This document shows, one piece after another, positions 1 through 64,000 of a stretch of 64,000 nucleotides of DNA. The position numbers and the translations under genes are program-made. Within the stretch, counting starts at the first letter, position 1, and every line of letters begins with the position of its first letter. Source of the stretch: Amoebophrya sp. A120 (lineage: Eukaryota > Protista > Dinoflagellata); contig CAJINV010000009.1 in the NCBI GenBank assembly GCA_905178155.1, positions 2,643,373-2,707,372 of the forward strand. Reading direction: 5' to 3'. The notes below the pieces were generated by a model. The model was not told the DNA's origin. It saw only the letters and a list, made by a program, of their open reading frames with translations, and did not search any database.

Positions 1-252
1 ATATGTGTGGGTCTGGAAGCATGCGAACTTGTGATGCGCATTTCACACCACAGATAAATCTCTCATGCATAGGCAGCAAAAGGCGCCCGCTTCCTGTCAC
101 CAAAATGGGGGATTTGTCATACGGATTAAGCAGTGCGGAAGCTTCTCGAAATCTGTGATGCTAGGGCTTCCATGACAGACATTTTGTGTCATGCAAAAAC
201 AGCATGACAAAAATCTGCACTCTTCCAGACCCAGACACTTTTGCATTTAATA
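1..252. mobile_element. Introner family A (left end outside window)
   Basis: GGGTCTGGAA ... TTCCAGACCCAGACACTTTTGCATTTAATA TIR. Confidence 0.85.
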
Positions 253-3200
253 CTGTTTTCGTGGGACTGGTCGGGTTGATGCTGGAACACCGTTGTTCGC
301 CGCGCTTGCCGCAGCAAAAGCACCACGCTGATGCGTAGTTCCAGTCGCCGCACCACCGGGAACATATCGACCGGAGGCGGCGCCACCAGTGCTCGAATGT
401 AAAGACGCCGTGGGGGAAGTTTGCCCCTGAAGATTTGGGTCTCCAACACCCCCAGCTGCACGATGTTGATCCCTAGAAGTTGTTGTAGTTGTCCCTTGAG
501 GATGACCTCCTCCCTTTGCAGCAGTAGAACTCACCTGGATATTGTGCCACGTTCGCATCCACCGAACCGGAATCTTCGCAGTCTGTCTTGTAATCTTCGA
601 AGATTTCGTACTGTAGCCGATTCTGTATATCGTTTGTGGTTTGCCCTTCTCAAATTCTTCCTCCTCCTCATCGCTCCTCAGCACGGTCGTGCTGCCAATC
701 GTGCCTTCCGTGCCCGTCGTCGCTGACCGGAGACGGTTCTCGGTTAGGGGAGGGTGGGTCGGAGGAACTATTGTTCCAGAAGATCGTACACCTCCTGCGG
801 CGGACGAGTCTTGCTTGTGCTGTTCCTGGTGATCGAAAGCTTCATCATCTTCCGCAGTAAAATGAAAAATCGCTTCATCCTCATCATACACCTTCGGCAC
901 AGAAATCGGCAACGAATACCGACTTTCCTCTTCCCTCAAAGCCGGATTCGACGCGGCGAGGATTGACGGTTTCTTCTTCGTATGCAGTGCAAAAGTATCG
1001 CGCTCGTACTACTTAACTGCACTAATGCATTAGATATTCCGCATCGCAAATCTAATCTGTAACGCTGAGCCAAGTTGCATTGCACGTTTATACTAGTACG
1101 ATACTTTTGCAATTCATACTTCGGCGCATTTGCGTACAAATAGTGCTCGACTTGCTTCTTCCACGAATCAAACTTCCGGATCAACCGCTTCCTCCTTTTG
1201 TACTCTTGAACGGCCGCGGGAATCGACTTCGTCTGGGGGTAGTTGCTGTGGAGAGAGTAGGCGTCGTCGACGAGTTTAGTAGAATTTTGATGCGTCTTGA
1301 TGTTCTGGTGGCCTTCTTGCTCTTGAAATTTATTGGTATTTTTACCACCCCCGTCAGCTCCACCTGATGTTGTTGACACAGACGCTGCGAACGGCCACTC
1401 CCCCACGGTTAACTTCTTTTTCACTTTTCGCTGCTCCAGCTTGTCTTTTTCGTTTATCGGGACAAGGACAAAAACAATCGACCGGAGCACCGAGCGGAGT
1501 CGATACCAGGGAAAATTCTGCTCGGTGGCTTTCTTACTGGCAAGGGACAAGCTGGAGGCAACAGCACGCGACGTAGCACCCTCTCCAAGTAGGTCGCCGT
1601 CACTGCCGACGAAATTCTTTTCATACAAAAACGCCGGCGTCGCTGCTGGCATATGGGGTTCTCAAACGTTCCATTCTCAACTGTTGCATGAATTTGTCAT
1701 GCAAAAATACCATTATCATCCACAAGACCAAGCCGCCTCGCATGACAAATTTGCGAAGGGCTACTAGGCAGCACCTAAATCTGTTCGGGATTTGTGATGC
1801 TACAGGCGCAACCTTCCCCCTTTCACTTTTGCCATTCTTGCATCACAAATCCATGTAATCGGTGAGAATGTAACAGTTGAGAACGCCATATGGCAAAGGG
1901 TGTGCTTGGGACACGATTTGGTCCACTGTGTTCCACGGGATGACGTCCGGTTGGCAGAAAGTCAAATGCAAATGTGTCTGGGTCTGGAAAGTTGGAACTT
2001 GTAATGCTAGCTTTCCATACCTAGAAAATCTGTATTGCATAACCAACATCAAAAGTCGCACCCTCTTTTCTCATTACAAAAACGCAGTTTCTCATGCTGA
2101 CTGACTATGAGAATGCGTTCCGGAAAGTTGTCATACTGGGTCCCATTCGGAACTGTTTCGATCATCCACATTTTAGCATCAGAAGTTTCCAGACCCGGAC
2201 ATATTTGCATTTGATACAGAAAACGCGTTTCTGATTCGTCCACGATTCCCGTTATCAAGTGTAAAAGTGTCTGGGTCTGGAGAAGTGTAGACTTGTCATT
2301 TTCCATGACCCGTGAGGTCTGGAACGCGGGACTTAGCATGACAGACTCTGCGAGGTCTCTGCCATGCCTATCCTGCATGAGAAACTCCCTTCCAACTACT
2401 TGAACAAAAGCTTACAGCTTTTGGCACTCATGCAACACAGATTTTTGCATGCTTCAGATTTACCATGACAAGTTCCATCCTTCCAGACCCAGACATTTTT
2501 GCATTTGATACCCGTTTCACATAGTCAATTTTCGTCGTGAGACCGCGCAAATTGTCGTATTCGTAGCGGAAGTAGAAGTGTTCGGTGGAGGAATTGTGGG
2601 CGTAGTAAGGTTCTTTTTTGTAGCTGCTACCTCTGCCGCGAAGGGCGACGCCATTGGTGTTGCTGTTGCAGCTGCCTTGTGGAGCAGGAACGTCGATCAT
2701 TCCCCCTCCTTCTTGGGTTCTTGAGGTATTCATCCAATTGTTGATGTTGTCCTCCTGCTGATGAAACAAATGCGCACCGCTCTCGTCGCCGGTAAACACC
2801 GTCCCCGCGCTGTTTGGGCTACTGCTGCTGCCTCCACCGCCGTACTTGTTCTGGAAAACGGATTCTTGGTAAGACCCCGGGGTGGGCGTTGGCGAGGGAA
2901 GCATGCTATCCGCGCTTGGACTTGACGCGCCGGTAGTTCCTGATCCAGAGCTGACATTCACGAACTGGCTGGTAGGCTGCTGCTGCAAACCTGCTGGATC
3001 ATTATAGCGCGGATCATTGCCGTAATCTTGCCGCGTCCACGAGTGGGACATCGGATCTGCCGCGCCCTCTGGCTTTACACCACGCGGCGGTCGTACGATT
3101 TTATTTCCGTGTAGTTGTCCCTGAGGCCTCCGCGGAGCAAAATCTGTAGCAGTAGGATCAAGGAGTATTGTGAGGAAAAATCCCCCCTCCCCATATCGAA

Positions 3201-6200
3201 AGCGGAATGTGTGTTGCTGTATTTGAGTACGCAAATCATATCTGTCTTGCTGGAGAGGACTGCAGACCCATATCAAGCCTGAGCAGAGAGGCTTTGACTT
3301 AGGCGCATAGCATGAAAAGCGTCCGTGGTGTTGGCTCAACAGCATGACAAACCGCCTCCATAATGGGACGGAAGCTGCTGCCCTTGTCTTCTTGCAACAC
3401 AAACGTGATTTGTGACCTCAAATCAGCAACACAAATTTTCGAAAACCTACCTTTTCAATATGGGGTGGGGGGATTTTTCCTTTTGATAAGTAGACCAGGT
3501 TCTTCCGAGATGGCGCTCGCCTTGCTACCCCGCTTGTTGTTAACGGTAGAATTGACGCCGGCAACCAGGTCCTCACCGCCGGTTGTACCACCGCCAATGC
3601 CGATTTTGCTACCCCTCTGACTGCTCGAATGGTGGTCATTTATTTTGCTCTCATTGTACATGTACGCGCGTTTCTGCAACACTCGCAAGATCGACCTACG
3701 GAGAACGTATTCGTATCCTGTGCAAAAGTATCGTATTCGTATACATGCATTACAAATTTCCTCAGCATGAGAAATAAAATTTGTAATGCTGATTTACCTT
3801 AAGGCAAAGATTTGTATATGCATGAATGCAATACGAGTACGATACTTTTGCAGTTCATAATTCGTAGCTGACCACGATGTCGTCGACGTGCTGTTTTTGC
3901 TCTATGGCGTTCTCAACTGTTCCATTCATTCCCAACTGTCACATGAATTTGTGATCCAAGAATGGCAAAAGTGCTAGGGGGAATCTTGCGCGTCCTGCAT
4001 GACAAATTTGGCACCGATTGTCAGCCTGTTTGATGGCCCTCTAAGAATTTGTCATGCGAAGCAGCTTCATAGTGTCGATTTTGAAGGCAATTTTGCATTA
4101 CAAATCATGTAACAGAAACAGTCGAGGATGTAACGTTTGAGAACGCCTTATGCTCCTTCGCCAACTTCGGACTTCTGTCCGTGTCCGACGCAGACGCGGA
4201 GAACCGCATTGTGTGCTGCGCTATCAAGTGCAAACATGTCTAGGTCTGGAAGAGTCCAAGGTAAAGGTTTGTCATGCAAAGGCCAGCATGACTCCAAAGC
4301 CTGTCATGCACATTACCCGAAAGGACCACTTTTCTGTCATGCAGAAACGCGCTTTGTCATGCAGAATACACAACACGTAGGTACTCAGAAACTTGTCATG
4401 CTGCGCTGCCAATTAACGCGTCCTCATGGTTCTTGTCCTACCCGCATCACAAGTTTCCAGACGCAGACATATTTGCGATGCATATGCGCAGCTTTTGCGC
4501 TTTCGTTTTTCGAATCGGTTTTGCTTCTTTCGCCCGGGAGGTGATGTTGCGCGGCTGCAATCACGGATGTTGATTGCGGTAGCCGGAGGCTTGAGGTTGT
4601 GGCAGACGAAACTGCGGCCACTCCGGCGGTCTTCCGTAACCTGGTGAATCCATCAGGCGCTGCTGTTCCTGCAGCAGCTCCCCCATGATGCATTCTTGTC
4701 CGCGAAGATGAGACTTGGGGCTGGGTCGCAGCAGGAGCAGTTGCACCATGAGCAAGATGTTGCTGTGTACTAGCTGCTATCCCACTGTTGCTGTTTCCGT
4801 TCTGACTGCCCCCCAACATGCTCAAGCTTTGCGACTCCGCGATCATACTTCCCTCCGGTCTCGCGACCCTGTTCAGAGTGCTTGCATCGCCAGATGGAAC
4901 ACCTCCTGTCGTAGTTCCTGCTACCATACCTCCAACCGTACCTCCGTTAACACTCGTTAAAGTCGCGTTATTAGGGGTCAGATTCTGTGCACCAGCACCT
5001 CCGATGTCACTGGTTGAGTTGTTGCTGCTACGTCTGTCGGGTTCTAAAACTCCCGCCGAGTTTAGTGTCTCCTCGTTCATCTGCAGCAGCTATGAAGGCC
5101 TCAGGTTGGAAATCCTCACAGTGAAAATGATTTGTAATGCAAAAAAAACGACACCAGTTGAAGCACCATTTCTAGTCGGCGCATGACAAATTTCTTGGGC
5201 ACTCAAAGCGTGTCTGTCATGCTAGTGAGGCAAAGGGGTGCCCTTCTCTCGTGCTAATCTGCAGCCCAATTCTGGACCCGTAGAAGCACAATAGTCGGCC
5301 TCCATTGCGTTCTCTGCAATACAGTTTTTTTGGTGTAGCATTCCATGCACTACAAATTATTTCCACTTTGAGAATTTCCTTTCTGAGGCTTTCATAACAG
5401 CTCGTTTGACCTGGACAAAGAATCGTCCTCTTGATTCAACAGGTTTACAGCGTTCATATCAGCTCCGGAGGGACTCGAAATCGCAGAAGCAGACGCACCA
5501 CCTTGTGGTTGCTGCTGCAACCCACCAAAGCTTAAAGACGTCGCGGAGTGGTCTTTCGTCCTATCTTCCCCAAGACTACCGGAATGCGAGCTCCTATCAT
5601 CCTCATGTGCACCAGCGCCGGCTCTGGTTGAAGATATGTTTTGTTGCAGTCTCCGGAGTTGTTCCTGGTCTAAATTTCGTGTAACCAAATCCAAATTGAC
5701 ATTTAATTCCTCCTATGCAACGCAAAAGCATCATACTCGTATAAATGCATGACAAATTTCCTCAGCATGAGAAATGAAATTTGTCATGCGGATTTACCTT
5801 AAGAGAAAAATTTGTAATGCATGATTGCGATTACTACGAGTACGATACTTTTGCACAGGATACCTCCCCGCTGGTAGAACTGCTGGCGGAAGTACGAGCA
5901 GTGCTTCTCATCAAATACTGCGATATCCTGTGTAAAAACGTCCCCACCCCAGAGTTGTCGTGCAAGTGCGCGACGACAGGAACATTTGTAATGCGCGGCT
6001 CCATGTAAGGCATTTGCATTTCCAACCGTGTTTTGGAATTTGTAATGCTGTAAACAGGATGAGAAAGCGGCTCCCTCATGCAGATTCCCTTGCTAACCAG
6101 CACGAAGCTGCAGAGGCAAACTTGTCATGCGCAACTCCCAAAACTTGGAGATTTGTCTAGCAGATTTCCCATCTTGACTATGGGGTGGGGACGTTTTTAC

Positions 6201-9200
6201 TCAGGATATGCGAATTTTCATGCACATCAGGCGAAACTTGTTGCCCTTCGCCCTGCACCGCCCGACGAGAGGAGGAAGAAGCGCCTCCTGTGCCGCCGAC
6301 GCCCAGCTGGTGCAGCAGCCCTCTGGAGGTTTGCGCGTTCGTCGGGGTGACAGCCGCAAGATGACCAGTAGCGCCGCCGGACAGCGCATTTGCTCCCGTA
6401 GAAGTTCGCGGCGGATACGTGTTTGACGACGAATTCGTCTGCGATAGCACCAATTTCGGTGTCGTGCTTGATCCAGCTGTCGCTAAATTGGAATTCGCCC
6501 TTGCTGGATCCGACGATATTGTGTTCGAACCGGAAACAAGTCGGGGGGAAGAAGACAAATTATACGTGCCTGCCGTATGCTTGTTTTTCAAGCTCGAGGT
6601 CGCTAGCCTCGTCGCGCCACCCGTAGTTGAGCTTCGACTGTTCTGCAGTTGACCCACAGATGCAGAAGTGCCACTACTTGTCGAGACTTTCATTGTCGTG
6701 GTTTTTGACGACGTTTTCGTGGTTTTCGAAGTTGTGAAAACAACAGAGGTTGGGTGCTTCCTGTCGTGTTGCGTGATGAAAATCTGATCGGTGTTAGCGC
6801 TGTAGCTCAGTTATGCATTGCAAAAGTATCGTACTAGTACAAATCGCAATACAAATTTTTCCAGAAGGAAAAATGGAATTTGTAGTGCTGATTTCGCTAA
6901 GAAGGAAGATCTGTCATGCATGATTGCAATTAGTACGAGCACGATACTTCTGCACAGGATATCAGTTCCCAATTGTGGTCCCAGTTACAAACCACCAAAT
7001 TCGACTTCGTGATCGTAGTCGTCGTGGTGGTGGTAGTGGTTTGATGCTGGTTGATAGAGGTAAGTGCCGACTGGGACTGATGATGTCCCCCGAGAGGTGG
7101 ACCACCGCCGGCATGATCCTTGCCAGGTAGATGCAAAGTCGCACTCGAGCCGTGCTTCGGCAACATGCCACTTACCGCGGACGCTGAGCCTGTTCCCGCA
7201 GTGGTTGATGTCGCAGCAGCGGCCGCACCTGCTCCCGATGAAGGTCCTAGCATTTGCATCGCTGTTGGACTCGCAGTAGAACTACTACCTCCTGCACTGA
7301 TGATGTTGGCACCACTTGAGGACATATTAGCCGTCCCGGTTTTATTTCCACCACTCGTCACACCAGCCTATCCCACGAAAAAACTGTTTCACTGTGATGA
7401 TCTTGCAAGATCTGCATCACAAGTTTGTTACACATGACACAGAAAATTTGGCATGCGCGCTTCCAAAGGGAAAACACCGGTAAAGAGACGAGGAATTGCA
7501 GGTGTGGCAAGACAAATAGTTCTGTCTTCCATTCTATCCATCACAAGTTCACAGCGAAACAGTTTTTTCTTGCGATACAGCCCCAGCGTTGTACATGACT
7601 TGTTGGTCCGCAATGGCCGTCGATCGGAACAGTTGCATCCCACAGACCAACCTTGTTCCAACCAAATCTTCGAACAGCTGTCTACTTTTACAGTGCGACT
7701 GCACCACCGGCTGTTCCTTGCCCTCTTCGTCTAGAGTTCGGAATTGTTCTGCGTTCGCCGCGACGCAGGACCAATTGTCGGATTTTTTTCCCAGCATGGA
7801 ATCTCTAAACCCCTTCCCGCTTCTCGTACTTGAGCGGACGTTTAATTTTCGTTCTACGAAAATCGGCAGCAACGGTGGCGAATGTAACACCGACCACAAG
7901 GCTTGTAGGGACAACAGCTTGGCTTTCTTGAAGTAATTCGGATTCTCCTTCGTAATTTCAAAACGCGTCGCGAGCCAACGCTCGGATTCTTCCAAAGTCT
8001 CCGGGGAAATCGGCCCATTTTGTGCGATGAACTCCGCTAATGCCGCTTTGCGCTCCTTCTGGTATTCGAACTGTTGCTGGATTTGCTGCTCTTTGACATT
8101 GGAAAACTTCCTGTACTGTTGCACCGGTTTAGTAGCTGGTTTGGAAGTAGTGCGGCGAGCAGCGGTGGTAGAAGTCGGAAGTGGTACTGCACCAGGAGGT
8201 GCCCCGCCTGTTCGACTTCCTGTTGCAGCGCCGCTGGCTGATGATCCATGAGATAAAGTTTGCTTATCAATAGCAAATATGTCTGGGTCTGGAAGAATGG
8301 AACTTGTAATGCTAGTCCTGCATTCCTGTAAAATCTGTGTTGCATCATGACTAGCAAAAAGACGCCCTCTTTTGTCATATTACAAAAGCGCAGCTTCTCA
8401 TGCTGACTGCGCATGCGAAAGTGTGCGGCAAACTTGTCATGCTTGGCTGCATTCGGAAGTATTTCAGTCATCCACACTTCAACATCACAAGTTTCCAGAC
8501 CCAGACATATTTGCAATGCATATTGCTGATGTTCTTGCAAAGTTGGTGTGGATTGATGCGAAACTGCCCTCCGGTTATTCATGCCTGATTGCATTGCAGG
8601 AGGTAGAGGTAGAGACTCCTGCAGTGGAGATGATCTTCCTGCGCCAGCATCCTGTGCAGTACTAGTACAACTCGGGAAGCTGGTCTGAATCGCAGCAAGG
8701 GGTGTTTTCTTCCCCTTTTGACCAGCTTTCGCGGCGCCAGTCGTGCCACCAGCTGCACCTGGGGAAGTCGCAGGCTTGGTCGCTTGTTTATTTCCCGTCG
8801 CAACGAGGACTCCGCTGGACGTCTCAGTTCGTTTTATTGTCGCAACATCTTCTGAGGCGGCAGAGGAACTCAAATTGACCGTATCGCCGGTGGACAGTTC
8901 TCGGATTTCCAATTGTGTGCTAGATTCAGGACCAGACTGCTTCAAAAACCCACCGGCGGTGGAACTCGCCGCACTATTAAAAGTCGCCGGACTCGGGCTG
9001 GTTGTCGAGGGGATTCTGTTTGTCCCCCTGCTCCCACTCAACGAGTCCAAATTTCCTCGCGAGCTATTCAGCCCACTCCCCGAAGCTGCGGAAGACAGGC
9101 TGGGGTGCGCGGTTACGACCATGCCGCTAATCGCCGCGGTAAAAGGGGCGGAGGACGCGGAGGAATGCAGTTGTTGTCCAGCAAGCATCATGTTCTCATT

Positions 9201-12200
9201 TGAACCGCTGGGCGTGATTTGATTCGACGCTCCAGAGCCACTGCCCGTTTTTGTAACCGAAGGTTTGTTCTTCCCTATGTTCGTGTCCTGACTAGCACCT
9301 GTTCCGTATACTTCTCCCGGAAAGGGAAAAAACGCATCGGAAAACGCGCGGCTCTGCGCGGCAAAGGGCGAGGGAGCGAGCAAGTCCGCGGGCTGGTTAG
9401 TTGCGGACCGCTTCAACGCGGATCGTCTCGCCGTGGAGGAAGAATTTCCGCCGCTCGCGTGCAGTGGGGTCAAAGTTTGATTCGCGGTAAGCAAATCGAC
9501 TTGGTGATGCTGGTGATGGACACTTGCTCTCGTACTTCCAGAGGCTTGCCTTTGCAAGCCGCCGAGGGAATTAGAGGCCGATCCATTGTAGGGAAACGCC
9601 AGCCCGCTGTCACTCATATGAACCCGCAAACCTGTCGGGGTGCTGCGCGGGCCACGGGGCGGCAAACCGGAAGTAGTTGTAGTACTAGGGCCTGCAGAAG
9701 TTGTTCCTCCAGCACTACTCAGTGGCGGCTTGTTCTGCACAAGTTTTCCCCTCGTAGAAGCTGAAGCACCAAACGCCCCGCCAGTATTGTTGAGCGTCCC
9801 TTGTTTATCCCACGAAAAAACTGCTTCACTGTGATGATTTTGCAAGATCTGCATCACAAGTTTCTTACACATGAGACTAAAAACCTGTCATGTGCGTTTC
9901 CCAAGGGAAAACACGCTTGAAATTCCCATGCCTTGCAGGTGTAGCAAGACAAATACTTCTGTGTTCCATTTTCTGCATCACAAGTTCACAGTGAAACGGT
10001 TTTTTCTTGCGGTATTGTTCTGCCACGGTGGTGTTACCGGACAACTGCTTCAAGGCTTCCTTTGCTTCCTCCTGGTTCAAAGTGCTCTGATTAGACACGG
10101 GCGTCGTTCCAGTGGTTCTACTCACATATCCTGTGCAAAAGTATCGCACTCGTACTAATTGCAATCATGCATGACAAATCTTGTTTCTTAGCGAAATCAG
10201 CATTACAAATTCGATTTTTCCTTCTGGAGAAATTTGTATTGCGATTTATACTAGTACGATACTTTTGCAATGCATATCACAATATTACCGGCAATTTGGT
10301 TCGTTTTCGAGTTGTTCCGACTACTAGTGGTCATCTCCTTCGATGAAGACGCGGAAAAAGCTGTCAGAGTTGTGTTCGATTGATCCTGGTCTTGATCCGT
10401 CAAAGTTAAGTCCGCCTGGTCCAAGTCTGAAGTGACCCCGACGCTCAAAATCGACTCGGGTAAAATCGGCGGCCCGCGAGACGAGGATGGAGCCACGACT
10501 TCCACGTGCGCCGCGGGGATGTTCAGTGGCATTTGTGGCCTGCTGTTGATCGCAGGATCATCCAACGGCGTCGCCGGGGTTGTCCCGGCGGTGCCCTCGG
10601 TGGAGTAGCTTGTCGTAGGAGAAGGTTCCTGTGGCGGGAACTGCTGGTTAGGACGGACCCGCTGGTTGACAAGAACCGGTGAGCTTTGGTTGGACAGCTG
10701 GTCTACTCCTGTGCTTCCGGGTAAAAATGGTCTACTGGTTGCTCGTTCTTTCGACGACGCCCGGGAGGAGCTGTCGCCGCCAGCCTGGTGCTGCTCCACT
10801 ATGGCGTTCTCAAATGTTACATTCTCAACTGTTACATGAATTTGCAATGCAAGAACGGCAAAAGTGAAAGGGGAAAGATTGCGCCTTTTGCATCACAGAT
10901 TTGGCGCAGATTCAGCTGCTGTTTGGCCCTTCGGAGATTTGTCATGCGAAGCAGCTTAATCGTGGCGATCTTGCTTGTAAATTTGCATTACAAATCATGT
11001 AACAGTTGAGAATGTAATGTTTGAGAACGCCATATCCACTCTCACTTCTTTCGAAGAAGTTTGGGATTTGCTTGAGTCGCCCTCAGCCACGTGACCTCCC
11101 GGAGTGCTGCTGGTTTCCTCCGCAAGTTGTCCAGGAAGTCCTCCATCTCCCACCTCCACAATATCCTCTAAAATCGATTTTGTCAAGTCTGGGGAGGATT
11201 CGCTCCGGATCTGCTTCTGATGCCGTGCCTTAGCTTTCGGTACAGCTGCTGTGCCCGCAGAAACATCTGCAGCTCGTCCTGCAGAAGTTGTAGTTGCAAG
11301 GTCGTGCCGACCGGAAGTTCTCTGTACTTCACCAGTCATCGCAAGACCTACCTCAGCACTTCCAAGAACTCTTTGTTCCCCTCCGCTTTTCATCTTCTCG
11401 TTCTCCGTCGTGGTCACATACTGCTTCCCGAACTCAAATACGTCCATCTGCCCGCCGACGTAGATGCCTGCGTTGGTCTCAAACTGGTAATCATCCGTGG
11501 GCTCCACCCTGGTCGTCGTCGGTCGCCACTTCACATCGTGAATCCCCAAATCGTGTACGTTCACCATGTCCTGAAGCTTCACATTCATTTGACTCGCTTG
11601 GGATGAAGCTGCTGCCAGGTTTGCTTGAGGCGTAGTTCCAACCACAGGGTAGGGAAAGCTGATTGCGGAAAGTGCCGCTGCAATCGGCGCGGGTTTCATC
11701 CGAGTTTGCTGCTCGACGAGAGTCCGGTATTGGAAATGGTCTCTTGGTGACGTAGTGTGTTGCGCGTTCCAGTTGTCTAACATCTGCATGCGCATCATGC
11801 TCTCCGCTGAACTGAATCCATCGCCGGCTAAGGTACTACTGCTGGCGTCACCGTTTGTTCCGGTGCCAAAAACGGTCGCGTTCAATTTCCTCTGCGATTC
11901 CAGGTAATTATTCACCTTCGCAATCGCGTTCGCCCCGAAAAACGCCTCGCGGAAGTGGTTTGCGGTTTCGAGGTCTTCGGTATTTAAAATGTTGTCGGGT
12001 TGGATCGACTTGTAGAGGTTTTCGTTGGAGAGATAGTACGCGGACAATGGATCTGGTAGCGCAGGAGCTTCTCCATCTGTACTGCTTGTTTTCTCAGCGG
12101 CCGCGGCCCCACCACCAGGTACAAAAAGCGCAGTCAAGCTTCTTTTCACGACAGAAGCCGCGGTGGGGATCTGCGACAAGCCGGCAATTGAGGACATTGG

Positions 12201-52700: not shown

Positions 52701-55700
52701 CTGCTCATGCAGCACAGATTTTCCAGGAATGCAAGACACGCATCACAAGTTCCACTGTTTCAGACCCAGCCCACATTTTTGCATTTGATAACCAGGAAAG
52801 GAAAACCATCTCGACGCGGCCGAACGCGTATGACCTGCAAAAATGTTCGGGTCTGGAAACTTGTGATGCTAGTTTGTGAATGGTGGGCGCACTGCGTTAC
52901 CACGCAGCCACGCATGACAAGTTTCTGAGCGTCTAATTCTATGTGTTTCGCTTCCATCCCGCATGAAAAACTGCGTTTTTGCATGACAGGTAAGAGGCTG
53001 CTTTCCTGCTCACGCATTACAGATTCAAGAGTCGTGTCAGACAAGCATGACAAACTTGCAGTCTTCCAGACCCAGACATATTTGCAGTTGATAACGCGGC
53101 GACTTTGACCAACACGGCGGAAAGGTACAGCAGGATCTGGATGGTTTGGGAGAGTGGAATTTAGTTATTTTTGTGGTGCACCATCAATTGCAATAAAGCA
53201 CAGACTCATGTAACGAAAATTTTTGTGATGCAAGAAGAACGATGAACATGCTATGTTACCCCGACAGTCAGGATCGACACCACCCACTGCAGCCCGCATT
53301 TCAAACACGCCTGCTCCAGATAGCTCAACGACTGGTGCTTCTCTGCCTTCATCAAAAATGCCTGCGTCGTCGTCGCAGAGACAACGGCATTTTGAAGATT
53401 CGCAGAAGCTGGCGCAGCTTGATTCACCCCGCCCGGAGGTCCTGCTCCGGTTAGTTGGTTTGGCGAGTTGCTAGAAGTTCCAGGTGCGCCAACGTTGTTT
53501 ATTCCGCCCCCACCACCCGCGACAGGCCCTGCAATCGCGTTGCCGCCATTACTCGCGGAGCCACCTCCACCTGCGCCATCGCCGGTCCCAGCAGGAACAG
53601 CTCCTGCACCGCCCGGACCACTCCCTTGGGCGCCGGCCGAGGCGATTAAGTGTAAAGACCGATCGTCTAGAATTGTCGTCCAGAAGATATGACCTGCTCA
53701 AACGTTACAATCTCAAACGTTACAATAGAATCCGAGATTTGTCTTGCATGATCAACATGACAGACTCGGACAGCATTCCACTTTCTGCAATACAAATTTC
53801 GCCAGATTGTAGTGCGGATTGGGACTCCAGAACTTGTCATGCGTAATCCTGTGGGAGTAGGGTAGATCATGCACTTCTTGCAACACAAGTCCCAGATTCT
53901 ATTGTAACGCTTGAGATTGTAGCACCTGGGCAGGTCATAGAAGATCAGCACGTTGTAGAGAAACAGGATCTATGAAATGCAAAAATGTCTGGGTCTGGAA
54001 GGATGCAACTTGTGGTGCTACCTCTGGATTCTACATAAAATCTGTATTGCGCGAGCAGCAAAAGAAGTGCAATTTGTGCTACGCGGAGAGGGTATTTCTC
54101 ATGCGGTATGAGCATCGGAAAGCCCTCGCAGAGTCTCTGATGCCAGGGCATGCATCACAGACCTCATGGGTCATCGTCATGCAAAATCTGCATGACAAAC
54201 TCCTGCATTCTTCCAGACCCAGACATATTTGCATTTGATAGGATCGGTAGCGCGATCGACATCGCCAGGATGATGTGCTGCACCGTGAAACACCAGGTGT
54301 TATCGCTATCGAAGCAGATTTCGTTCTTGTAAACAATTTTCTCGCACTCATCGCTGTCGTCGACGCAAACCAAGTGGTTTGGGTTGTAAATCGAAATTTC
54401 CGTCCCCGTGGAGTCCAGTATGCAATACAAATTTCCCGCTCAACGTCCACATGTACAAAAGGCATGAGATTTTGATTTTTCGCTAACTGGGATTGTCATT
54501 AAACTTGTCATGCTGGTGACTAAGATTGAAGGCACGTTTTGTCCTGCAGCTGCAGAAACAGCAACAGCATCTGTACGCGTCCGGGAATAGATATACTGTG
54601 AATATCCAACGTGACAGCGCAACTTGGTCTGCTGTCCCCCGTCAACGTGTAGTACTGGACTTGTTCGTTTTCCAGGTCCGTGACGGCGGACACCACCGCC
54701 TGCACTCCACTTGGTAATTCCGAAAATTCCGTCTCGTGGGGGAAAAACGTTTTCAGTGATGCGTTGAACGTATGGGAGTGCCAGGATCGAAATCGTCAAA
54801 GTTGAAATAACTTGTAATGCATAAAATCGATACCAGTTGGAAGCCCAAATTGTAAGCGGTGCATGACAAATCTCGGCACCGTCTAAATCCAGTTTGTCGT
54901 GCTGTTTGGGGACAGCAGGCGTCTTTTGTCATGCTTCCTTAGCAGCTCTATCCCAAACCCGAAACAGGCTCACAATCGGCCTCGCTTGCAATCCCTGCAA
55001 GACCGTCTTTTCATGCCTTGCATTTTATGCATCACAGATTATTTCAACTTTGTCGACTTCAATCCTGACACTCCCATAGAACGGCCCCTGTTGGTAATTC
55101 ACGAACACGGTGTTCTGCTCCAACGCAGCTTTCGAATACTGCTTTCCGAACAGTGACTCCCCGGGTATCCAGGAAAAAAACTGTGTAAGTGCATAGTTTC
55201 TTGGAGGACTAGCATCACAAGTTTGCTCTGCATGACACAGAAAACCTGTCATGCGTAGCTGGTACGTGAAAACACGCGCGAAAATTGCCTCTGATGCATG
55301 TCCAGCATGAAAATGTAGCAGTTTTGCATTTTATGCAACACAAAGTTACAGCACTTACACAGTTTTTTTCTTGGTGGATACCGGGATAGGAAGGAACAGT
55401 CGCTCGGCAGTTCGGGAAACAGACTTGCGTCCTCGGTAGCCTTCCCTGGTAGCTTTGCAACGAGTTGGTGTTTCGTGTTTCCGGGAGGCTGCTGGTCAAA
55501 AACCGGTCCTCGTCCACGAGCGACGTTTTCTCATTCGGGAACGCGACGTAGCGGCACTCATTGAAAGCCTTGGAAGATTCGAGTTCCGCATCGGCTGCGA
55601 TGGCGGAGGTGGTTGTCACGGATTTCGCTTCGTGCCGTCTCCCGAGGTGGAAGTCGTAGAGTTTGGAATACTCGTTATCGCCGTAGTAGATCGAAAAACC

Positions 55701-56275
55701 GGTTTTCAGGAAGCAGGAGAGCGTGGGGTATCCAGGAAAAAATATCCATCCCAATACACTTTGTCATGCAAAACATGCATAACATCCACTATTTGCCATG
55801 CAAAAAAATGGATGGGATGGGTGTTTTTTCCTGGATATGGGAAAGTTTTCCAACACACAGCTGATTTTGCAGTCCAGGCGTCGCTATCCTGTGCAAAAGT
55901 ATCGCACTCGTACTAATTGCAATCTTGCATGACAAACCTACCTTTTTACCACCTGAATTAGCATTACAAATTCAATTTTTCTTTCTGATAAAATTTGCAA
56001 TGCAATTTATACTAGTACGATACTTTTCCAATGCATAGTCGCATGCACAGCTTCCCATTTTCCCAATTCGCATAGTCGACCACGTGGGAGGTGATGATTA
56101 GGTAGATGGAAAGCGCGAGAAACAGGCGTATCAAACGAAGCAACGCGCCGGAGCGACACCGGGGCGGGAGATAGTTTTCGCGGAACCAGTAGCGGAGAAA
56201 AAGGTTGTTGGCTTTCAGGTGCGTCAAATAGGTTTTTGCAACCGGCTCAGCGTTCAAGAAGTCGGAGGCCCACAT
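46734..56275 (-). CDS. Multi-pass membrane protein: Cys-rich loop, voltage-sensor-like (S1-S4) domain and class I 3',5'-cyclic nucleotide phosphodiesterase; 16 introners plus canonical intron 53137-53259
   Basis: PDE motifs NPYHNALHACDV, IHDYQHPGVSN, LENHH, LATD, LHAADISN, EYFRQGD, QLGFI; VSD motifs FALEIVIR, WNLFDF, LLRLLRLLRL. Confidence 0.85.
47309..47421. mobile_element. Introner family D
   Basis: TIR; DR TTTCG. Confidence 0.9.
47527..47654. mobile_element. Introner family D (diverged)
   Basis: TIR; DR TTGAG. Confidence 0.82.
48020..49270. mobile_element. Introner family F with ~1-kb nested insert (about 48062-49037)
   Basis: TIR halves; DR TCCGC; interrupts the PDE catalytic domain. 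Confidence 0.88.
48858..48944. repeat. Tandem repeat ACGAAGTGCTCTGAAAAA(A), 4-5 copies
   Basis: Direct reading. Confidence 0.85.
50105..50262. mobile_element. Introner family B
   Basis: TIR; DR TCGTC/TCACC (degenerate). Confidence 0.8.
50682..51005. mobile_element. Introner family A with nested ~70-bp truncated retroposon (50738-50812)
   Basis: TIR; DR TGTCT/TATCT. Confidence 0.85.
51782..52043. mobile_element. Introner family A
   Basis: TIR; DR AGTCG/AGTCA. Confidence 0.88.
52102..52352. mobile_element. Introner family A (left end CAT)
   Basis: TIR; DR TTTGC. Confidence 0.88.
52536..52790. mobile_element. Introner family A
   Basis: TIR; DR ACCAG. Confidence 0.9.
52829..53093. mobile_element. 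Introner family A
   Basis: TIR; DR ACGCG. Confidence 0.9.
53688..53939. mobile_element. Introner family L (single copy here)
   Basis: TATGACCTGC..TACAATCTCAAACGTTACAATAGAATC TIR; DR GAAGA. Confidence 0.88.
53971..54240. mobile_element. Introner family A
   Basis: TIR; DR GGATC. Confidence 0.9.
54419..54604. mobile_element. Introner family K
   Basis: TIR (degenerate); DR TCCAG/TCCAA. Confidence 0.8.
54771..55078. mobile_element. Introner family G
   Basis: TIR; DR GAACG. Confidence 0.9.
55166..55380. mobile_element. Introner family E
   Basis: TIR; DR CCGGG. Confidence 0.9.
55729..55837. mobile_element. Introner family D
   Basis: TIR; DR TGGGG/TGGGA. Confidence 0.88.
55885..56037. mobile_element. 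Introner family B
   Basis: TIR; DR GTCGC. Confidence 0.9.
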
Positions 56276-58239
56276 AATTGATGTTTTTGAATTTTTTGGT
56301 ACGGTCGACTACCAAGAGTTTCTTTCTTCAACTACTCATGTGGTGCTCTCTCGTTATTTTAGAGGAAGTGGCACGACCACACCGACTGCGTATACCACTC
56401 GTTCCGCCTGGGTGAAATGATCCTCCGTCAACTACGTGCTTTATAATTCACTTCAAAAAGCTCCCCTGCTCTAGCACGAGCCGGAACCGCCTCAAGAACC
56501 TCGATCCCCCTCATCTTCAAGTGCGAACATGAGCGACTCGCACCATGCGTCCTCGTCAGCTTGTTGACGAAGGAAGAAAAGCGCGCGGACTACTTGCAGC
56601 TTCGCCGCCACCCCCCACCTCCGCGGTCGCTCGCGCGGCGCTCCACAAAAGCCATGGGCTGCGTGTGAGCGAGCATTGATTTCGCGCCACAGCAGGTGGG
56701 GCGAGCGGTGCGTGTAAAGCCGGGCAAACGAAAACACAACCCCAATCATTCAGCGACAATGCGTGACACGCGGTAGGCGTGTAGCTACAATAACGAAACA
56801 GCAGCCACACACCGCTGCATCAATAAGCTTAAGCTTAACGCGAGGAGAAGCACGGCGCGGGCGCACTATTTAGGGCGCGCGCGCCTTCTTTTTAGTACCT
56901 GCTGCGGAAAGCACATAGAACCCCCCCGCGGCGCCACAGGCAGCCGCCGGGAGTTGCCGGCGCCGGGGCTCGACACGGCCGAACGAACTGCCCCAAGAGC
57001 TCCCGCGGAGAGCTTGCCCACACCGTGGACACAACACAACAGGCGCGGCGCGCCAAAACCAAGAAAGCAAGGGAGTGCGCCGCCAACAGACACACCGGGG
57101 CGAAAGGTGATAGGGCGGGCCCGGGCGCCGCCCCCCTCCCGCGAAGAGGGGGCCGCGTCCGCCCGACCTGCGCGGAGGGTTGGCGGGCGCCACGAAGGCG
57201 GGGCCGCCCGGGGGCAGGAAGCGAACAGCGCGGCCGCCCCCCCGGGCCCGCCCGCCTCCACGGCGCGGCCCGCGCAACAAAGAGCAGGGGGCGCAACCGG
57301 GAGGGGACGCCGTCCCCGGCGGCGGCGCGCTTGCGGCGCTCCGCGGGGTAGACTGCGCCGCCCGGGGCCCGTTTGGTCGATGGCGCGCAGCTGCCAGCCT
57401 GGCGGCCTTCTTCGCCGTTCCCATACCCATCCCCGCCACGCTTGAAGGCTGCCCAAATAAAAAACGGCCGGGCCGACCCGCCTCGCAGGCCCCCTGCTTT
57501 GTTCGCATAAGCCTGCGCGAGTGGTCGCGCTCGCAATGCCGGCCGGGCGCCAGTGCCTGGCCGGGTAGCGAACGCGCTAAGCCCGCCCGCCTGCCCGATG
57601 GGCGCAACAAGCAACCGCCCCCCGCTGGCCCGAAAGCTGTCGCCCGAGTGCCCGCAACTGAAAGCGCCAGGCCGCCGCCCTTTTCGTGCATCGCGGCAAA
57701 ATTCGCGCGGGCATTTCGAGGCGGGTCGCTGGGGTATCCCTCCACTGCGAGCCTACCGCCCTGCATCTGGGCCCATTCCTGTGCCCGCGCCTGTGGCTGC
57801 TGGCGAAGGCGGCGCACCAAGGTCGTCGGGCGACGCGGCGCCCCCGCGATGCGCGCGCGATCCCTCACAAGTAGCCCCGGCCCCAGCCCGCGTCTGTCCA
57901 GTCTCTTCCGCTAATGCTGTGCATCAGTCTGGCGAAGTTGTGCAGCGCTTTTTGTTTGTTCCTGGGTGCTGATCTCCCGGAGGAGCAGCAGCTTGACGGC
58001 ACTGTGGCCGCGCGAACACATCATAATCTTCACACGCGCTGCTTTGTATATTGACAGAGCCAAGGCTAGCAAAAAAACATGTGTCCGCAATCGTCTTGAA
58101 TCTTCAAATTCGAACGACAGGAAACACGGATGCTATCGTCCTTCGGCTTTAATATCGGAGCTCAGAGTGAAGATAAAAAAATTCGAAACAAACAAGCGGT
58201 TGCTATCGCTAACATCCTCCCCATTTTCAATTTATATCT

Positions 58240-59804
58240 TCATCCATTATTGAACCCCAAGCTGTTCGTCATCAACTCCGCCAGACTACTGCCCGCGTTA
58301 TTTCGACTGTTCCCAAACCGCCTGGTCCCGCCAATGCCCGCGAAAGCCCCGCCTTGGTTCCCGCTAACGTTGTTTGGATTGCCGGACCCGGCGCCCGAGC
58401 TGCCGCTGTTGGACTTGCTGTGGTCGTTTGCGGACCGGTTTCCGCCGGTGCTGGTGGGGTTTGTCGTAGACCCAGGCTTGGAGCTCGTTCCTGAGGAACT
58501 GGCGTTTTCCTGGATAGTTTTTGTTTGATTTTTGCAACTGCAAGTGCTAGCAACACACAACTACACTACTACATGAACATGTACATCTTCATGGGTCTGG
58601 GTGCTGCATGACAAACAAAAACCCAATCTTCGCAGTATCATTCTCATCGTACCGAAGTGTCCACCGCGTCCAAGTACGGGTGCTTCAGGTACTCCATCCA
58701 GCTCATGGCTTTTATTGACCTGTCTCGGATGATATGAATTGCACAAGTATCGTACTCGTATAAATGCATTACAAATTTCCTCCGCGTGAGAAATAAAATT
58801 TGTAATGCAGATTTGCCTTGGGAACAAGATTTGTAATGCAAGACTTGCATTTGTACGAGTACGATACTTTTGCACAGGATAGATGAACGTGATCTCCGGC
58901 TTGGTCAGAAACGTGCAGTCCAACAGGATGTTGTCCCCGATCATCCGCAGGCCCTCCTTCGCTTTGTGTTTATGCAATACAAATTTCCCGCACATGTACA
59001 AGATGCATCACAAATTTCACCAATTTGGAGTGTGTCATGCTAAACTAGGAAAGAAGACAAGTTTTCTTGCCATGCAGAGACCGCATTTGTAGGTGTACGG
59101 GAAATTTACTGTGGATAGTGTCTCCTGAAATTCACCAGTTCGTGAAACCTGTCGGTGATTTCCTTCCGCGGATTCACCCGGAAGTAAATGCTGTGCATCA
59201 GGAACGTGTGCGCGATATGAGAGTGCACAACTCCCCCTGTCCTTCATTTGTCATGCAAAACCCCAAATCCAAGGGCTTCCCTGTGGCACTCTTTGCATCA
59301 CAAATTCCGGAACAAGCCCGAACAGTACTACAGCAGGCGCATAAATTTGCCATGCACAGGCTCGACGTGTGCTGGTGTTTGTGTTGCTGTTCATGCAATA
59401 CAAATGAGGGGAAAGGAGAGCTGTGCACTGTCATACGCGATCCAGATGAACCACTCGTCTACGGGTTCAAATTTGTGCGGATTTCGCTTTTCGTTCAGCA
59501 ACACCTGCTTCAATTTCCGTTCGGTCAGCCAGTGCGGTGGCCACAGCATGCCGTGCTTCCGCTGTTCCAACTCCAAGCCGAGCCAAATGGGGATCGCGGT
59601 CTTCTGGCCCTTTTTGAACGGGCCGTGCTTTTTCTTCAGCGTGGCGAAAATCTTGTCCTCGGAATTGTAGAAGTTGTCAGACTGGAATATCGGCGAGTCC
59701 CAGTGGAACTCGCAGAGCGCCTCGAGCGCTTCCCGCCGGTCCTCCTTCAACCATTTTTCCAGCGGCTGCGACCAGATCTTGTGCTTCCCGAGGCTGGAGG
59801 CCAT
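58240..59804 (-). CDS. PSF2: GINS complex subunit Psf2-like; 3 introners plus canonical intron 58510-58652
   Basis: HGPFKKGQKTAIPIWLGLELEQRKHGMLWPPHWLTERKL resembles the Psf2 GPF..VPLWLA..L.QR..PPEW motif; LDCTFLTKPEI resembles LDNLTLMEIN. Confidence 0.65.
58733..58881. mobile_element. Introner family B
   Basis: TIR; DR GATGA. Confidence 0.9.
58971..59117. mobile_element. Introner family K
   Basis: TIR; DR GTGTT/GTGTC. Confidence 0.85.
59216..59435. mobile_element. Introner family H
   Basis: TIR; DR CGCGA. Confidence 0.9.
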
Positions 59805-61300
59805 GGTCGTAGAATTCTGGGCGTGAGTGCGCAGGTTGTGTTTGTAAGTCTAAGTCGGTCGGCAGGCTATCTTTGCATGATCGATGTGTCGCTTTTAAGT
59901 TTAATCACATAGAACTACTGGAAAGAGATTCAAATTGAGCCCACAAAGATAGCGCCTTCACCAAAACCGGATGCGATAATTAAAGCTGAGATTTACAATT
60001 CTTGCGATGGTGCTGCCGTGTCTCCAACCGTTCAAAGTACTAGCCCCAAGTTGTACCAGCAGAAGTCAATCTTCATTCGTGAGTAGGCTGCGCTCTTTTA
60101 TGCTGATTTCGCAGCAGTCTTTTGTAAGCAGTTCGTCCTTTTCCACACAGGGAACTACATCAACAAAGAAGAGAACCCGTTTCATCTTCTTCAACTTCTA
60201 ATTCGTCCAACACGCACACGCACTCCACGCAGAACGAATCATCAGATTCTTGTTCGTGGCCAACGATTCCAGACTGTTCTAACCTCGAAGACTGATGGTG
60301 TTGGCGATCATGCCTTTCACGGAAGAGGTGGATTTTAGCAGCCTCGAGCACATACCATCCGAAGCGAACACTCCTCCTGTGAGCGAAAACAATATATCCG
60401 TGCGCTTCGCCTGAAAAAGCAAACACAGAATATATAACTCTGCAGCCAAATCACAGCTCGTTGGGATTGCGTGCTGTCCCCGTTTCCTTTTTTCCTCATA
60501 GATCCTTCCTCTGCGTAGGTAGAACGAAACAAGAGTCGCGAATGTCGCTAAAGAGATTGTTCGTCGCGCACTGCAAAGGAAGATTGCAACGCGAAGGATT
60601 CATTTTGCTTGGTTAGGTTGCATTTTTCATTTTTTTGTACTTCATAAAGTAAAACTTCTTCGAACGTCGAAGTACAGCTATCCGATTCCGATCGACACAT
60701 AGAAGTGCTCGTTATATTTTCTTTCGCACTTTAAGTTTCTTTTCGTGTTTGATGGAAGGTCGCAGCATTTTTGTCTCCCGCTAGTGGTCGAGTAGCAATA
60801 GTCACGACTGGTGGGCCCCCCGACGAAGTCGAAAGTGAAGAAGAGCGAAACGTCGCGTCGGCACGCGATTCTTGTGAACGACCTGTGAGAGTGTGGTCGT
60901 GTGGCAGAATTCCAAATTGATGGGACGGTGAGGATGATGAATTGGGTGCTTAGGAGATGAAAAGCAGCAGAACGAATTCTATCTGAAAAAAATTGTATAA
61001 AAACATAAAGCGTCTTCTTGTGTTGTTGAAAGGGACCGCAGCATGCTACTCAAAACAAATTCAGATGAGAGCGTTTAAGTACCTGCAGCTGGCACCCTTT
61101 TATCTTTGCCCAGCGCGACGCGTACCTGCCGCGACTGCGACACAACAGAGTAGAACCCAGTCGCCGGGGTCCATTTTTCAAACACAGCGAGCATAATCAA
61201 GACCATGAAGCAGGCACCAAAATCTACATCATCTGACTGTCCACTCGTCCTAGCACAAGCTTGTTCCTCTTTATGCCGCAGACCCCGCCATGACCCGCTA

Positions 61301-64000
61301 CTAATTCGAAGGTTCGATCTCCAAAACCGGGTGGTAATACTTCTTGACGAACAAGTCCATAAACGTCACCAACTCCCGGAACAACGAACCAAACGAATCC
61401 AACTCGTTGTCAAAATCTACCCAATGCTGTTCGTTTTTTGTCACCTTCTCCACCCCGGGAATGCCCTTCAGCTTCACGAGGCAGGATATGGAAGCGTCAG
61501 GATTGAAATTGACAAAGTTGAAATAGTTTGTGATGCATAAAATGCAACCCACAAAGTGGCTGTCTTGCAGAATAGGCAAGGGAGGCAGATTCGAAGCCTG
61601 TTGAGGGGTAGAAATAGGGCTGCTAAAGTAGCATGACAAAAGGCGTCTTCCTTACCCAAACAGCATGACAAACTGGATTTCGGTTCTACCCAAATTTGTC
61701 ATGCGCCACTTGGAAACTGGGCCACGCCTGGCATCCATTTTATGCATGGCAAATCATTTCAACTTTGTCGATTTCAAACCTGACGCTTCCATACAGGAGT
61801 TTTTCATCAGAGGCACCCATCCGGTTAATATCCTGAGTAAAAACGTACCCACACCAGAGTCAAGATGGAAAATCTGCTAGACAAATCGGCCAACTTTGCT
61901 TGTTTCGCATGACAAATTTGGACGCGTAGTGTAGTGCTGTTTGAGCTAGTTCAGCAGCATTACAGATCTAGTCTCTCATGCTGATTGGAGCATGACAAAT
62001 TTCAAAACACCCTTAGAAAATGCTTCTCATGGGGCTCCGCATGACAAACATTTTAAGCATGCAGATTTGCATGACAACTATGGTGTGGGTACGTTTTTAC
62101 TCAGGATAGTTAACTTCACGTAGTTCTCCCGGTACCGGTCTCCGTCAGAATCGAAGTGTTTTTTACTGATCCCAAGGCGCTCAAAGTGCTCCAGTGTTTT
62201 CTCATCCTTGGCCTTCCGGGCGATTTTCGCGAGGTCATCCACGGAAAGACCGTTGATTGTAGTATTTCCCCCGCCTTTAGGATTAGGTGGAAACGACCCG
62301 GTCAAAGACGCAACTGCGGCCTTCTCCGCCGCGGCATTCTTCGCGTCAATCATTTTGGAAAAAGTCTCGAAGGAAGCGCCTGTTTCGCTGAACAGTTGGG
62401 ACTGCGGAATCGTGAATTGGCTCTTGACGATGGTGTGGTAGAGGTCTTTGTCGTTGATTTTTTCTGCGGTGGACAACGCGGCCAACGCGTTGTTGTAGTC
62501 GTTGACTAAAACTTCGTACTCCGGTTGGAACTGCGCCTTCACCCTCGCAAGGTCGTTATAATTTTCTGCGTTCATATCATGGTCGTCGTCGTCAAAATCG
62601 TCCTCTTCATCCTCTACTATCTCCACTTTATCAAACGCCTTCGAGTCCACCAGACTCAGCAATTCCATCGCTTTTAACAGCAAAAGCCCGGACCGGAGTT
62701 TGAAGTTCTTCATCAACCACTCCTTTTGCAGCTCCTGTTCGCTCGGGCTAGCGGTTGTTTTTCGGGTGTTGCGACCACGGCGGCGGGGGTCTTCAAGGAG
62801 ATCCTCCCCTCCGGTTGCCGTTGCGTTCGTTCCGACCACGAAGTATCAAATGCAAAAATGTCTGGGTGTGGAAGAGTGTAGACTTGTCATGCAGATCTTT
62901 CATGACCCATGAGGTCTGGAATGCAGAGCCTAGCATTACAGACTCTGTGAGGTCTCTGTCATGCCCCCAATCCACCATGAGGAACTCCCTCCCAACTTGA
63001 TCGAAAGTGGACAGCTTTTGGCACTCATGCAACACAGATTTTTGCATGATCATTCGGATTTAGCATGACAAGTTGCAATCTTCCAGACCCAGACATTTTT
63101 GCAATCCATACGAAGCACGGATCAACGACTTTCAATGGTTGTGTGCAGTCGTACAGCGTCTTGTTGTCCTTTAGCAATTCATACACTTCCTGTTGTTTCG
63201 TGACGCAATAGTTTAGGACAAAATGTGCCTTGTCTAAAGCGTCGTGGAACAAGTAGACGTTTTTGTAGAGAATCGTGTATTCCCTCGCTTTCTTCTCAGC
63301 TAAACTCGCTCCCACCGGGTTCTTTATGCTGTGCAAAAGTATCGCACTCGTATAATGAATGCATTACAAATTTCCTCAGCATGAGAAATGAAATTTGTAA
63401 TGCGGATGTATATTTGTAATGCATGACTGCAATACGAGTATGAAGGTCGCGCCCGGAGGGCGATATTGGTAACCAAATGCGTGCGCGAAAATCTAACCAG
63501 CGCGAAAGCCTAACCAGCCGCGCGGCGAAAACGCGGCCCTGCGGGCCGCGCTTTGGGGCTATTTGTTTTTGATTACAGTCCCACTACTTCTTCTTCAAGC
63601 CCCCTGCGTGAGAAACTGGCCCCCTGGCCAGGAAGGTATCTGGGTCATCGAGGGCTTCCGGATTCGCATTCAAAGCTTATCGGGGCCGCGGGGAAGTGGT
63701 GGAGCCCGCGGCGGCCCGCAGGCTCCTGCGATAAGCATCGCAGGCGAAATCCGGTCTGCTATTTCGCAGCGGGGCATCCTTTCTAGCCCCCTGCATGACA
63801 AACTGGCCCCCTGGCCAGGAAGGTATGTGCGAAACCACAAACCCGCGGACCCTGCTGGGCCACCAAAGTCGGGCATTTCAGACGCGGCGGAGGTCCCGAA
63901 TTGGTGCCCACAACCCAGAGCAAACGTGGATTTTGGGACATGCCTCCGCCCGCTTCTAATGCATTTTTTTTTCCCCAATCGCGATGGTATGGCGCAAGCG
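61301..64000 (-). CDS. Hypothetical protein, 3' part (5' end beyond window); at least 4 introners
   Basis: Exons 63111-63324, 62109-62843, 61794-61828 and 61301-61486 lie between elements; no family recognised. Confidence 0.6.
61487..61793. mobile_element. Introner family G
   Basis: TIR; DR CAGGA. Confidence 0.9.
61829..62108. mobile_element. Introner family F
   Basis: TIR; DR GTTAA. Confidence 0.9.
62844..63110. mobile_element. Introner family A
   Basis: TIR; DR CGAAG. Confidence 0.9.
63325..64000. mobile_element. Introner family B interrupted at 63439 by a nested TAT-starting GC-rich element (runs off window)
   Basis: Left TIR at 63325; right TIR broken after TACGAG by TATGAAGGTCGC. Confidence 0.7.

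Follow-up and report, generated by a model that had tools for sequence, protein, structure and literature searches.

A conserved, helically spaced internal motif common to array-bearing introner families of Amoebophrya sp. A120

How the repeated, non-canonical introns of Amoebophrya sp. A120 (introners) spread and how they are removed are the questions on which the present results bear. In a stretch of 64,000 nucleotides of this genome (contig CAJINV010000009.1, positions 2,643,373 to 2,707,372 of the forward strand; hereafter the window), a short motif, GCAT(G/T/C)ACA(A/G), recurs inside the array-bearing introner families as a conserved repeat with helical spacing, in spite of the differences in their terminal inverted repeats (TIRs). 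We lean, with somewhat better than even confidence, towards the array being the predicted double-stranded-DNA binding site of a protein that mobilises introners. A first-pass annotation, made from the letters of the window, had noticed the motif and proposed that it is a common recognition code; selection on the motif core, spacing kept over unrelated spacers and helical phasing all speak for such a code.

To delimit the elements, inverted ends flanked by repeats were searched for, which gave 63 candidates; two internal ones were dropped, three interrupted ones redefined and ten added on inspection or with relaxed search settings, resulting in a curated set of 71 elements in 12 families (A–L) with TAT…ATA ends. 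The whole window holds 191 strict matches to the motif (105 on the plus and 86 on the minus strand). As many as 177 of these matches fall in the 16.2 kb of elements (10.9/kb, against a mean of 2.1 and a maximum of 7 matches in 200 dinucleotide shuffles) and eight in the 47.4 kb outside them (0.17/kb; shuffle mean 2.4), the remaining six being inside two partial elements that were masked. Sites scored by a position weight matrix show the same, with 21.8/kb in elements and 0.7–1.1/kb in exons and intergenic DNA, no more than after shuffling. Both the enrichment over a shuffled background, on which the first-pass annotation had made its proposal depend, and the rarity of the motif in exons and intergenic DNA are thus borne out. 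All 12 TIR families and 70 of the 71 copies carry the strict motif, and GCATGACA is the top interior 8-mer when ranked by the number of families that hold it (12/12). The fuller consensus has 11 bases, GCAWBACARRT, i.e., GCA(T/A)(G/C/T)ACA(A/G)(A/G)T, and is quasi-palindromic; presumably it resembles ApiAP2 (TGCATG) or bZIP sites. Array-bearing families have two to nine sites per element, in either orientation, as had been noticed at first sight, and the 22 copies of family A alone hold 66 matches. The type example, in the family D copy at 13696–13804, consists of two direct copies on the minus strand with a 32 bp step (13727..13768; motifs at 13727–13736 and 13759–13768, one base to the right of the places first quoted, 13726 and 13758). 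Rfam comparison gave no matches.

If the motif were there simply because the families are homologous over their full length, its columns should not stand out. Core columns are conserved above the spacers (0.90 vs 0.76), so full-length homology, which the first-pass annotation had named as what could undo its claim, does not account for the motif; motif position 5 is free (0.74). Purifying selection on the motif core is supported by these figures. The families had been called otherwise unrelated, which is only partly right: in motif-masked local alignment most family pairs are no different from shuffled controls, F–L being clearly above. Profile scores controlled by decoys, in which sites were kept and spacers shuffled, reveal homology beyond the motif for F–I–L and for B–J, and a residual similarity of a few bits between several other family pairs, which makes a remote common ancestry of the families plausible.

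The arrangement of the sites is as constrained as their sequence. Direct motif pairs stand 31–33 bp apart, and the intervening spacers of 20–22 nucleotides are unlike their neighbours (identity 0.23–0.34); the origin of the pairs by tandem duplication of a 31–32 bp unit is ruled out, neighbouring spacers being unrelated. Among the representatives of 11 families, seven have the 31–33 bp pair (against a mean of 1.25 under the null, maximum 5 in 500; maximum 6 in 150 under a best-window null), family F being without it. More generally, site pairs up to 130 bp apart in family consensuses, direct and inverted alike, are in phase at 10.4–10.5 bp with the G|C step as the reference point. The observed value was matched by only 0–4 of 300 random placements in each of 12 settings, which include period scanning, collapsing of homologous families, leaving out family A, and pairs of at least 45 bp only. 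A phase of 10.4–10.5 bp shared by both orientations is what a protein sitting on one face of B-DNA requires. Position relative to the termini, a check that had been proposed, is also non-random: outward-facing sites stand 40–41, 48–52, 60–63 or 70 bp from the ends (Rayleigh R 0.77, 16 sites). Element length itself has no phase at 10.5 bp.

The same grammar recurs in further loci. A scan of metagenome contigs with the pair pattern gave at least 130 stretches, most of them, among the matches listed, from assembly JACKZZ01, of which 55 non-overlapping loci (417 kb) were analysed; four overlapping loci, 50 short ones and those of other records were left out. The 55 loci contain 232 elements with perfect 5-bp duplications, and the strict motif is present in 220 of the 228 shorter than 700 bp. 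Families A–J and L recur there, so the loci come from the same or a close organism and are new loci rather than a new lineage. Four further families (M–P) all carry both the motif and the 31–33 bp pair, none of them being the search pattern's own match. Altogether the pair is present in 14 of 15 families of metagenome elements, with a family-weighted period peak of 10.4. In a viral collection, eight pair-pattern matches were judged to be chance, each locus having just those two sites, and the TIR pattern of family A had no match.

Whether the motif is read as DNA or as RNA can be approached through the genes that host the elements. One of them, with an IML1 domain (250..24535, minus strand), regains a frame of 5063 codons when its 30 elements are removed together with five nucleotides each; removal of the element plus 0, 3, 4 or 6 nucleotides leaves a longest frame of at most 950 codons. 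By the same rule, 69 of 70 top-level elements fall in restored minus-strand frames, other hosts in the window being genes for a phosphodiesterase, a methyltransferase and Psf2. Seven joints among the matches listed, from families A, B, D, E, G, I and J, skip exactly the element and five nucleotides, and 52 further joints lie beyond these seven. They come from the contigs of one sample, putatively RNA, which can be taken for spliced transcripts since two GT-AG introns are skipped as well; in three RNA runs taken as raw reads, no exon within 36.5–56.2 kb was covered and no joint was seen. A GT-AG or GC-AG register is possible in only 6 of 71 elements, and the introners are thus removed from mRNA with non-canonical junctions, as is characteristic of A120. 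All 70 top-level copies in the window are within or adjoining coding frames, with no intact motif-bearing element in about 13 kb of its intergenic DNA and none nested in another element; the smallest gap between neighbouring elements is 22 bp in the window and 26 bp in the metagenome loci.

A strand-specific RNA splicing signal would have a fixed polarity in the transcript, and the motif has none: there are 151 sense and 180 antisense sites in the window, and 249 vs 252 in metagenome elements, where no strand bias appears (a strand could be assigned to 111 of the 231). The family D copy starting at 47309 has antisense sites only, yet it is skipped in the RNA contigs, and those starting at 13696, 17393 and 55729, as well as the family G copy at 5924, have sense sites only and lie in restored frames. 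In tight subfamilies, the ratio of private to shared changes is 3.9–7.4 in the core and 1.9–2.9 in the spacers (Fisher p 0.0004–0.057 in four settings, with the cluster-bootstrap interval of the core excess above zero in all four), and TIR positions 9–28 show no such excess in three of the four. Core mutants would then seem to arise and to be seldom copied, the pattern that a failure of mutants to copy would leave, and the TIR behaves as if held equally on all branches, each inserted copy needing its stem. The first-pass annotation had left it open whether the code serves a transposase or marks the element for excision; strand neutrality, the skipped antisense-only copy and the private core changes fit the transposition side better.

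As for the termini, TAT is present at 68 left and 67 right ends of the 71 elements (detection favoured such ends), and the 5-bp duplication is exact in 53 and matches at four of five bases in 16 more, with no exact duplication of 3, 4, 6 or 7 bp in any of the 71. Most family consensus TIRs have a run of A at about positions 9–14, and positions 9–28 are family-specific and conserved. By contrast with TAT and positions 9–28, positions 4–8 vary in all families no less than the spacers do, and are often mismatched between ends; families A and B have variants in common there. Were the TIRs kept as an RNA stem, G·U should outnumber A·C among their mismatches; the excess (38 vs 27 and 57 vs 43) was not significant.

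Under the reading we favour, one transposase, or a DNA-binding partner dedicated to it, would occupy one helical face as several protomers, starting about 35–70 bp inside each end, and would bring the two ends together; the paired ends would then be cleaved at TAT and inserted with a 5-bp stagger, and copies losing core bases would no longer serve as templates. Drift of the family-specific TIR (positions 9–28) would be tolerated, since its main task would be pairing with the opposite end, probably in the form of an RNA stem for excision. The enzyme would probably be integrase-like, judging from the TA ends, the 5-bp duplication and a published listing of A120 family 38.

Several results weigh against this reading. 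No transposase or integrase domain was found in 38 open reading frames (ORFs) of the window, nor in 148 of 384 metagenome ORFs, and Farhat et al. report putative transposases in strain A25 only, as far as the text of that paper goes (PMC7789003). Long ORF-bearing elements with the same ends and motif, a search for which had been proposed, were absent up to 7 kb in the 417 kb of metagenome loci. Three elements with TAT ends and 5-bp duplications have no array: K (18719..19346; 628 bp, TIR match 24/24, nested in the family J copy that starts at 18580), which holds one internal motif and no long ORF; R (metagenome locus L010, 649–759), nested in an E element; and Q (locus L067, 1980–3435; 1456 bp), which is motif-less, has an A-like TIR start and lies within an open frame, close to its 3′ end. 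Either the ends can move without an array or a second enzyme exists. Of the earlier idea of one system, the sharing of the motif by all 12 families stands, and one transposase for all of them goes beyond these results, none having been found and K, R and Q lacking the array. The phase is weak in single representative copies (p 0.02 at a fixed period, 0.19 when scanned, 0.16 without the 29–35 class) and not significant in families M–P alone (134/2000), and the placement null takes no account of mirror symmetry within elements. Finally, private core changes run at just 0.37–0.46 of the spacer rate, so selection after insertion is possible, and labelling the core from the consensus somewhat lowers shared counts.

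Part of this evidence would equally suit a protein of the host, DNA-binding or architectural, that binds the motif and aids the pairing of ends, with family-specific enzymes reading the differing TIRs. Such a factor would account for one motif over 16 TIR families, for conserved, family-specific TIR positions 9–28, and for the long array-free elements K and Q, perhaps nearer to autonomous parents; the geometry and the private-to-shared ratios fit it as well as they fit a mobilising protein. We nevertheless consider it unlikely, as the shuffle-level frequency of the motif in exons and intergenic DNA leaves it few ordinary targets in the window, and TAT ends with a 5-bp duplication, common to all families, point to one enzyme type. 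Less likely again is an excision mark, in which the motif would be recognised, on the DNA of the gene as it is being transcribed or on the RNA, by a factor that has the element taken out of the transcript. With a GT-AG or GC-AG register so seldom possible, the elements must have some unusual signal for excision. Both nested TAT elements that were detected (K and R) lack the array, against one in about 300 non-nested elements, as if motif-less elements survived mainly within other introns; this keeps the excision reading alive, the array not being universal. A strong site in three of four GT-AG introns and the depletion of private core changes are on its side, too. Against it stand the absence of polarity in mRNA, with antisense-only and sense-only copies alike, the private-over-shared excess, unexpected if selection acts mainly on inserted copies, and, if it is spliced, the motif-less Q within an open frame; the sites in GT-AG introns, moreover, may be relics.

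The motif could also have no reader at all, being either a remnant of shared ancestry or maintained by RNA-hairpin pairing between copies. The homology of F–I–L and B–J and the weak residual similarity joining other families favour this, and so does pairing: folding predictions place 41% of motif bases in pairs with other motif copies, and in family D even its two direct copies pair with each other, the motif being a quasi-palindrome. Yet ancestry does not explain why spacing is fixed while spacers are at random identity, nor does hairpin pairing predict the 31–33 bp direct spacing or the phase to the ends. Between mirror-placed sites, position 5 matches in 0.19 against 0.40 expected (about eight family-weighted pairs), and family G, with mostly same-strand sites, has only 15% motif–motif pairing. 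Motif–motif RNA pairing can occur in these models, and it does not seem to be the constraint; we regard a motif without reader as very improbable.

It is tempting to speculate, at rather long odds, that the phased array has a single reader, a DNA-binding protein serving both copying and the co-transcriptional licensing of a precise, non-spliceosomal RNA removal, in which case the introns would be defined on DNA and motif-less transposons would survive only in other introns. If this were true, tens of thousands of Amoebophrya introns would be DNA-defined. In any case, one motif with a helical grammar over at least 15 TIR families suggests a single machine for most introners, and the array gives an exact bait (two sites 31–32 bp apart) as well as exact mutations (core vs the free position 5; spacing +5 vs +10 bp) that could separate copying from excision. 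Element Q is a natural test case for the need of the motif in excision.

The copies in the window are as follows, the last one given for families A, B, E, G, I and J and the third of family D being those skipped in the RNA contigs. Family A (span 1960..63110; 22 copies, 251–270 bp) lies at 1960–2216, 2253–2510, 4222–4484, 8265–8522, 16124–16385, 20197–20457, 20512–20775, 20840–21104, 22420–24439 (interrupted), 24881–25149, 26962–27214, 37332–37593, 39008–39273, 40528–40792, 43074–43339, 50682–51005 (interrupted), 51782–52043, 52102–52352, 52536–52790, 52829–53093, 53971–54240 and 62844–63110, with a partial copy at 1–252. Family B (981..58881; 15 copies, about 150 bp; consensus sites F34, F52, R76 and R107) lies at 981–1118, 3714–3859, 5714–5862, 6812–6961, 10127–10276, 13421–13575, 22091–22238, 31887–32770 (interrupted), 32924–33076, 33114–33244, 39853–40003, 42410–42576, 50105–50262, 55885–56037 and 58733–58881, with a partial copy at 63325–63442. 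Family C (7369..55380; six copies, about 210 bp) is found at 7369–7577, 9806–10014, 17130–17344, 21473–21671, 39582–39796 and 55166–55380; family D (13696..55837; five copies, 109–128 bp; same-strand sites R41 and R73) at 13696–13804, 17393–17501, 47309–47421, 47527–47654 and 55729–55837; and family E (5091..61793; six copies, about 308 bp; consensus sites R50, F91, R132, R164, F227 and F259) at 5091–5396, 21726–22036, 40197–40505, 42651–42968, 54771–55078 and 61487–61793. Family F (1652..28696; five copies, about 238 bp) occupies 1652–1890, 3903–4150, 10800–11034, 27296–27530 and 28455–28696; family G (5924..62108; three copies, about 280 bp) 5924–6208, 48020–49270 (with an interruption of about 975 bp) and 61829–62108; family H (3166..38132; two copies, about 325 bp) 3166–3488 and 37805–38132; family I (38701..59435; two copies) 38701–38916 and 59216–59435; and family J (18580..59117; three copies) 18580–19385, which holds K, 54419–54604 and 58971–59117. 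Family L has a single copy (53688..53939; sites R60, F68, F100, R155 and F193).

Profile searches also detected decayed relics of families G and J at 41994–42227 and 23691–23794. Insertions with a (CAT)n tail, probably of a non-LTR (long terminal repeat) retroelement, occur three times inside introner copies (window 22609–24360 and 50739–50811; metagenome locus L023, 6347–6913), and introners seem to be safe landing places for them. The inserts in a G copy (48066–49040; 975 bp, poly(T)-edged) and in a B copy (31913–32635; 723 bp, GC-rich) have no other copy in the sequence examined. GT-AG introns without TIRs and with a strong motif inside lie at 24499–24686, 53137–53259 and 58509–58651, the last of which (minus strand) is skipped in the RNA contigs and has a perfect motif at 58606. 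Of the four GT-AG introns, two are supported by RNA and two inferred from frame fusion; those holding the motif are possibly old introners turned spliceosomal, their sites being relics. A fifth candidate (41913–42276) was dropped, since its chosen end is not AG and it overlaps the G-like relic. A tandem array with a 13-bp unit (about 15 copies) occupies 26300–26510, and the intergenic stretches 44500–46000 and 56500–57900 are 62–75% GC without Pfam match.

A120 has roughly 30,000 repeated non-canonical introns in 1,954 families, grouped by inverted repeat, and a general transposase-mediated mobilisation was argued against (Farhat et al. 2021, PMC7789003). The present elements are of that kind, having the same inverted repeat (TAT, about seven variable bases, a run of A), the same short direct repeats at their borders (3–5 nucleotides) and non-canonical junctions (PMC7789003, PMC12130899), and family lengths near 109, 149, 209, 234, 260, 278, 305 and 320 bp that also appear in the published table (PMC12130899, supplement file 8, 58 A120 rows). 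The same file lists A120 family 38 as ‘Ginger, 5-bp TSD, TA/TA termini’ (TSD, target site duplication), its ORFs having likeness to Copia and Gypsy sequences (PMC12130899). The available text of Farhat et al. (2021), Gozashti et al. (2025) and PMC9860276 describes no cross-family internal motif or spacing. In the literature searched, as far as its text goes (supplementary figures and logos, Figs S19–S25, aside), no account of either was found, in agreement with what the first-pass annotation had supposed. Among integrase-like elements, introners share TA..TA termini with IS3EU/GingerRoot, whose usual duplication is of 6 bp (none exact among the 71, vs 53 exact ones of 5 bp), and the 4–5 bp duplication with Ginger2/TDD, no integrase-like gene having been found in the sequence searched; the ends of IS481EU are TNT..AYA (PMC10045372). 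As no coding sequence was found, a superfamily is not assignable. Euglenid non-conventional introns are similar in their TIR-based RNA stem and TSD-like borders, and the available text describes no shared phased internal motif in them (PMC11282704).

The closest parallels to the array itself are systems with several short motifs inside the ends, such as IS607/IS1535, hAT (Hermes) and Emigrant/Lemi1 (PMC6188088, PMC1636448, PMC9921582), and the introners, too, have a repeated short motif at fixed phase inside their ends. The TnpA of IS607 binds helically phased motifs 20–60 bp from the end, and IS1535 has four helically phased 9-bp motifs, its terminal 19 bp being of little weight in synapsis (PMC6188088); the Lemi1 proteins bind subterminal motifs of Emigrant, a miniature inverted-repeat transposable element, cooperatively (PMC1636448). 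Unlike introners, IS607 has neither TIRs nor duplications and uses a serine enzyme. In subterminal systems, moreover, the motif is tied to one element family, whereas in introners one motif serves at least 15 families with differing TIRs, in both orientations, over the whole interior, with a step of three helical turns and with excision from mRNA in addition. The elements themselves, and subterminal binding repeats as a kind, were thus already known; what is new is the internal geometry of the motif.

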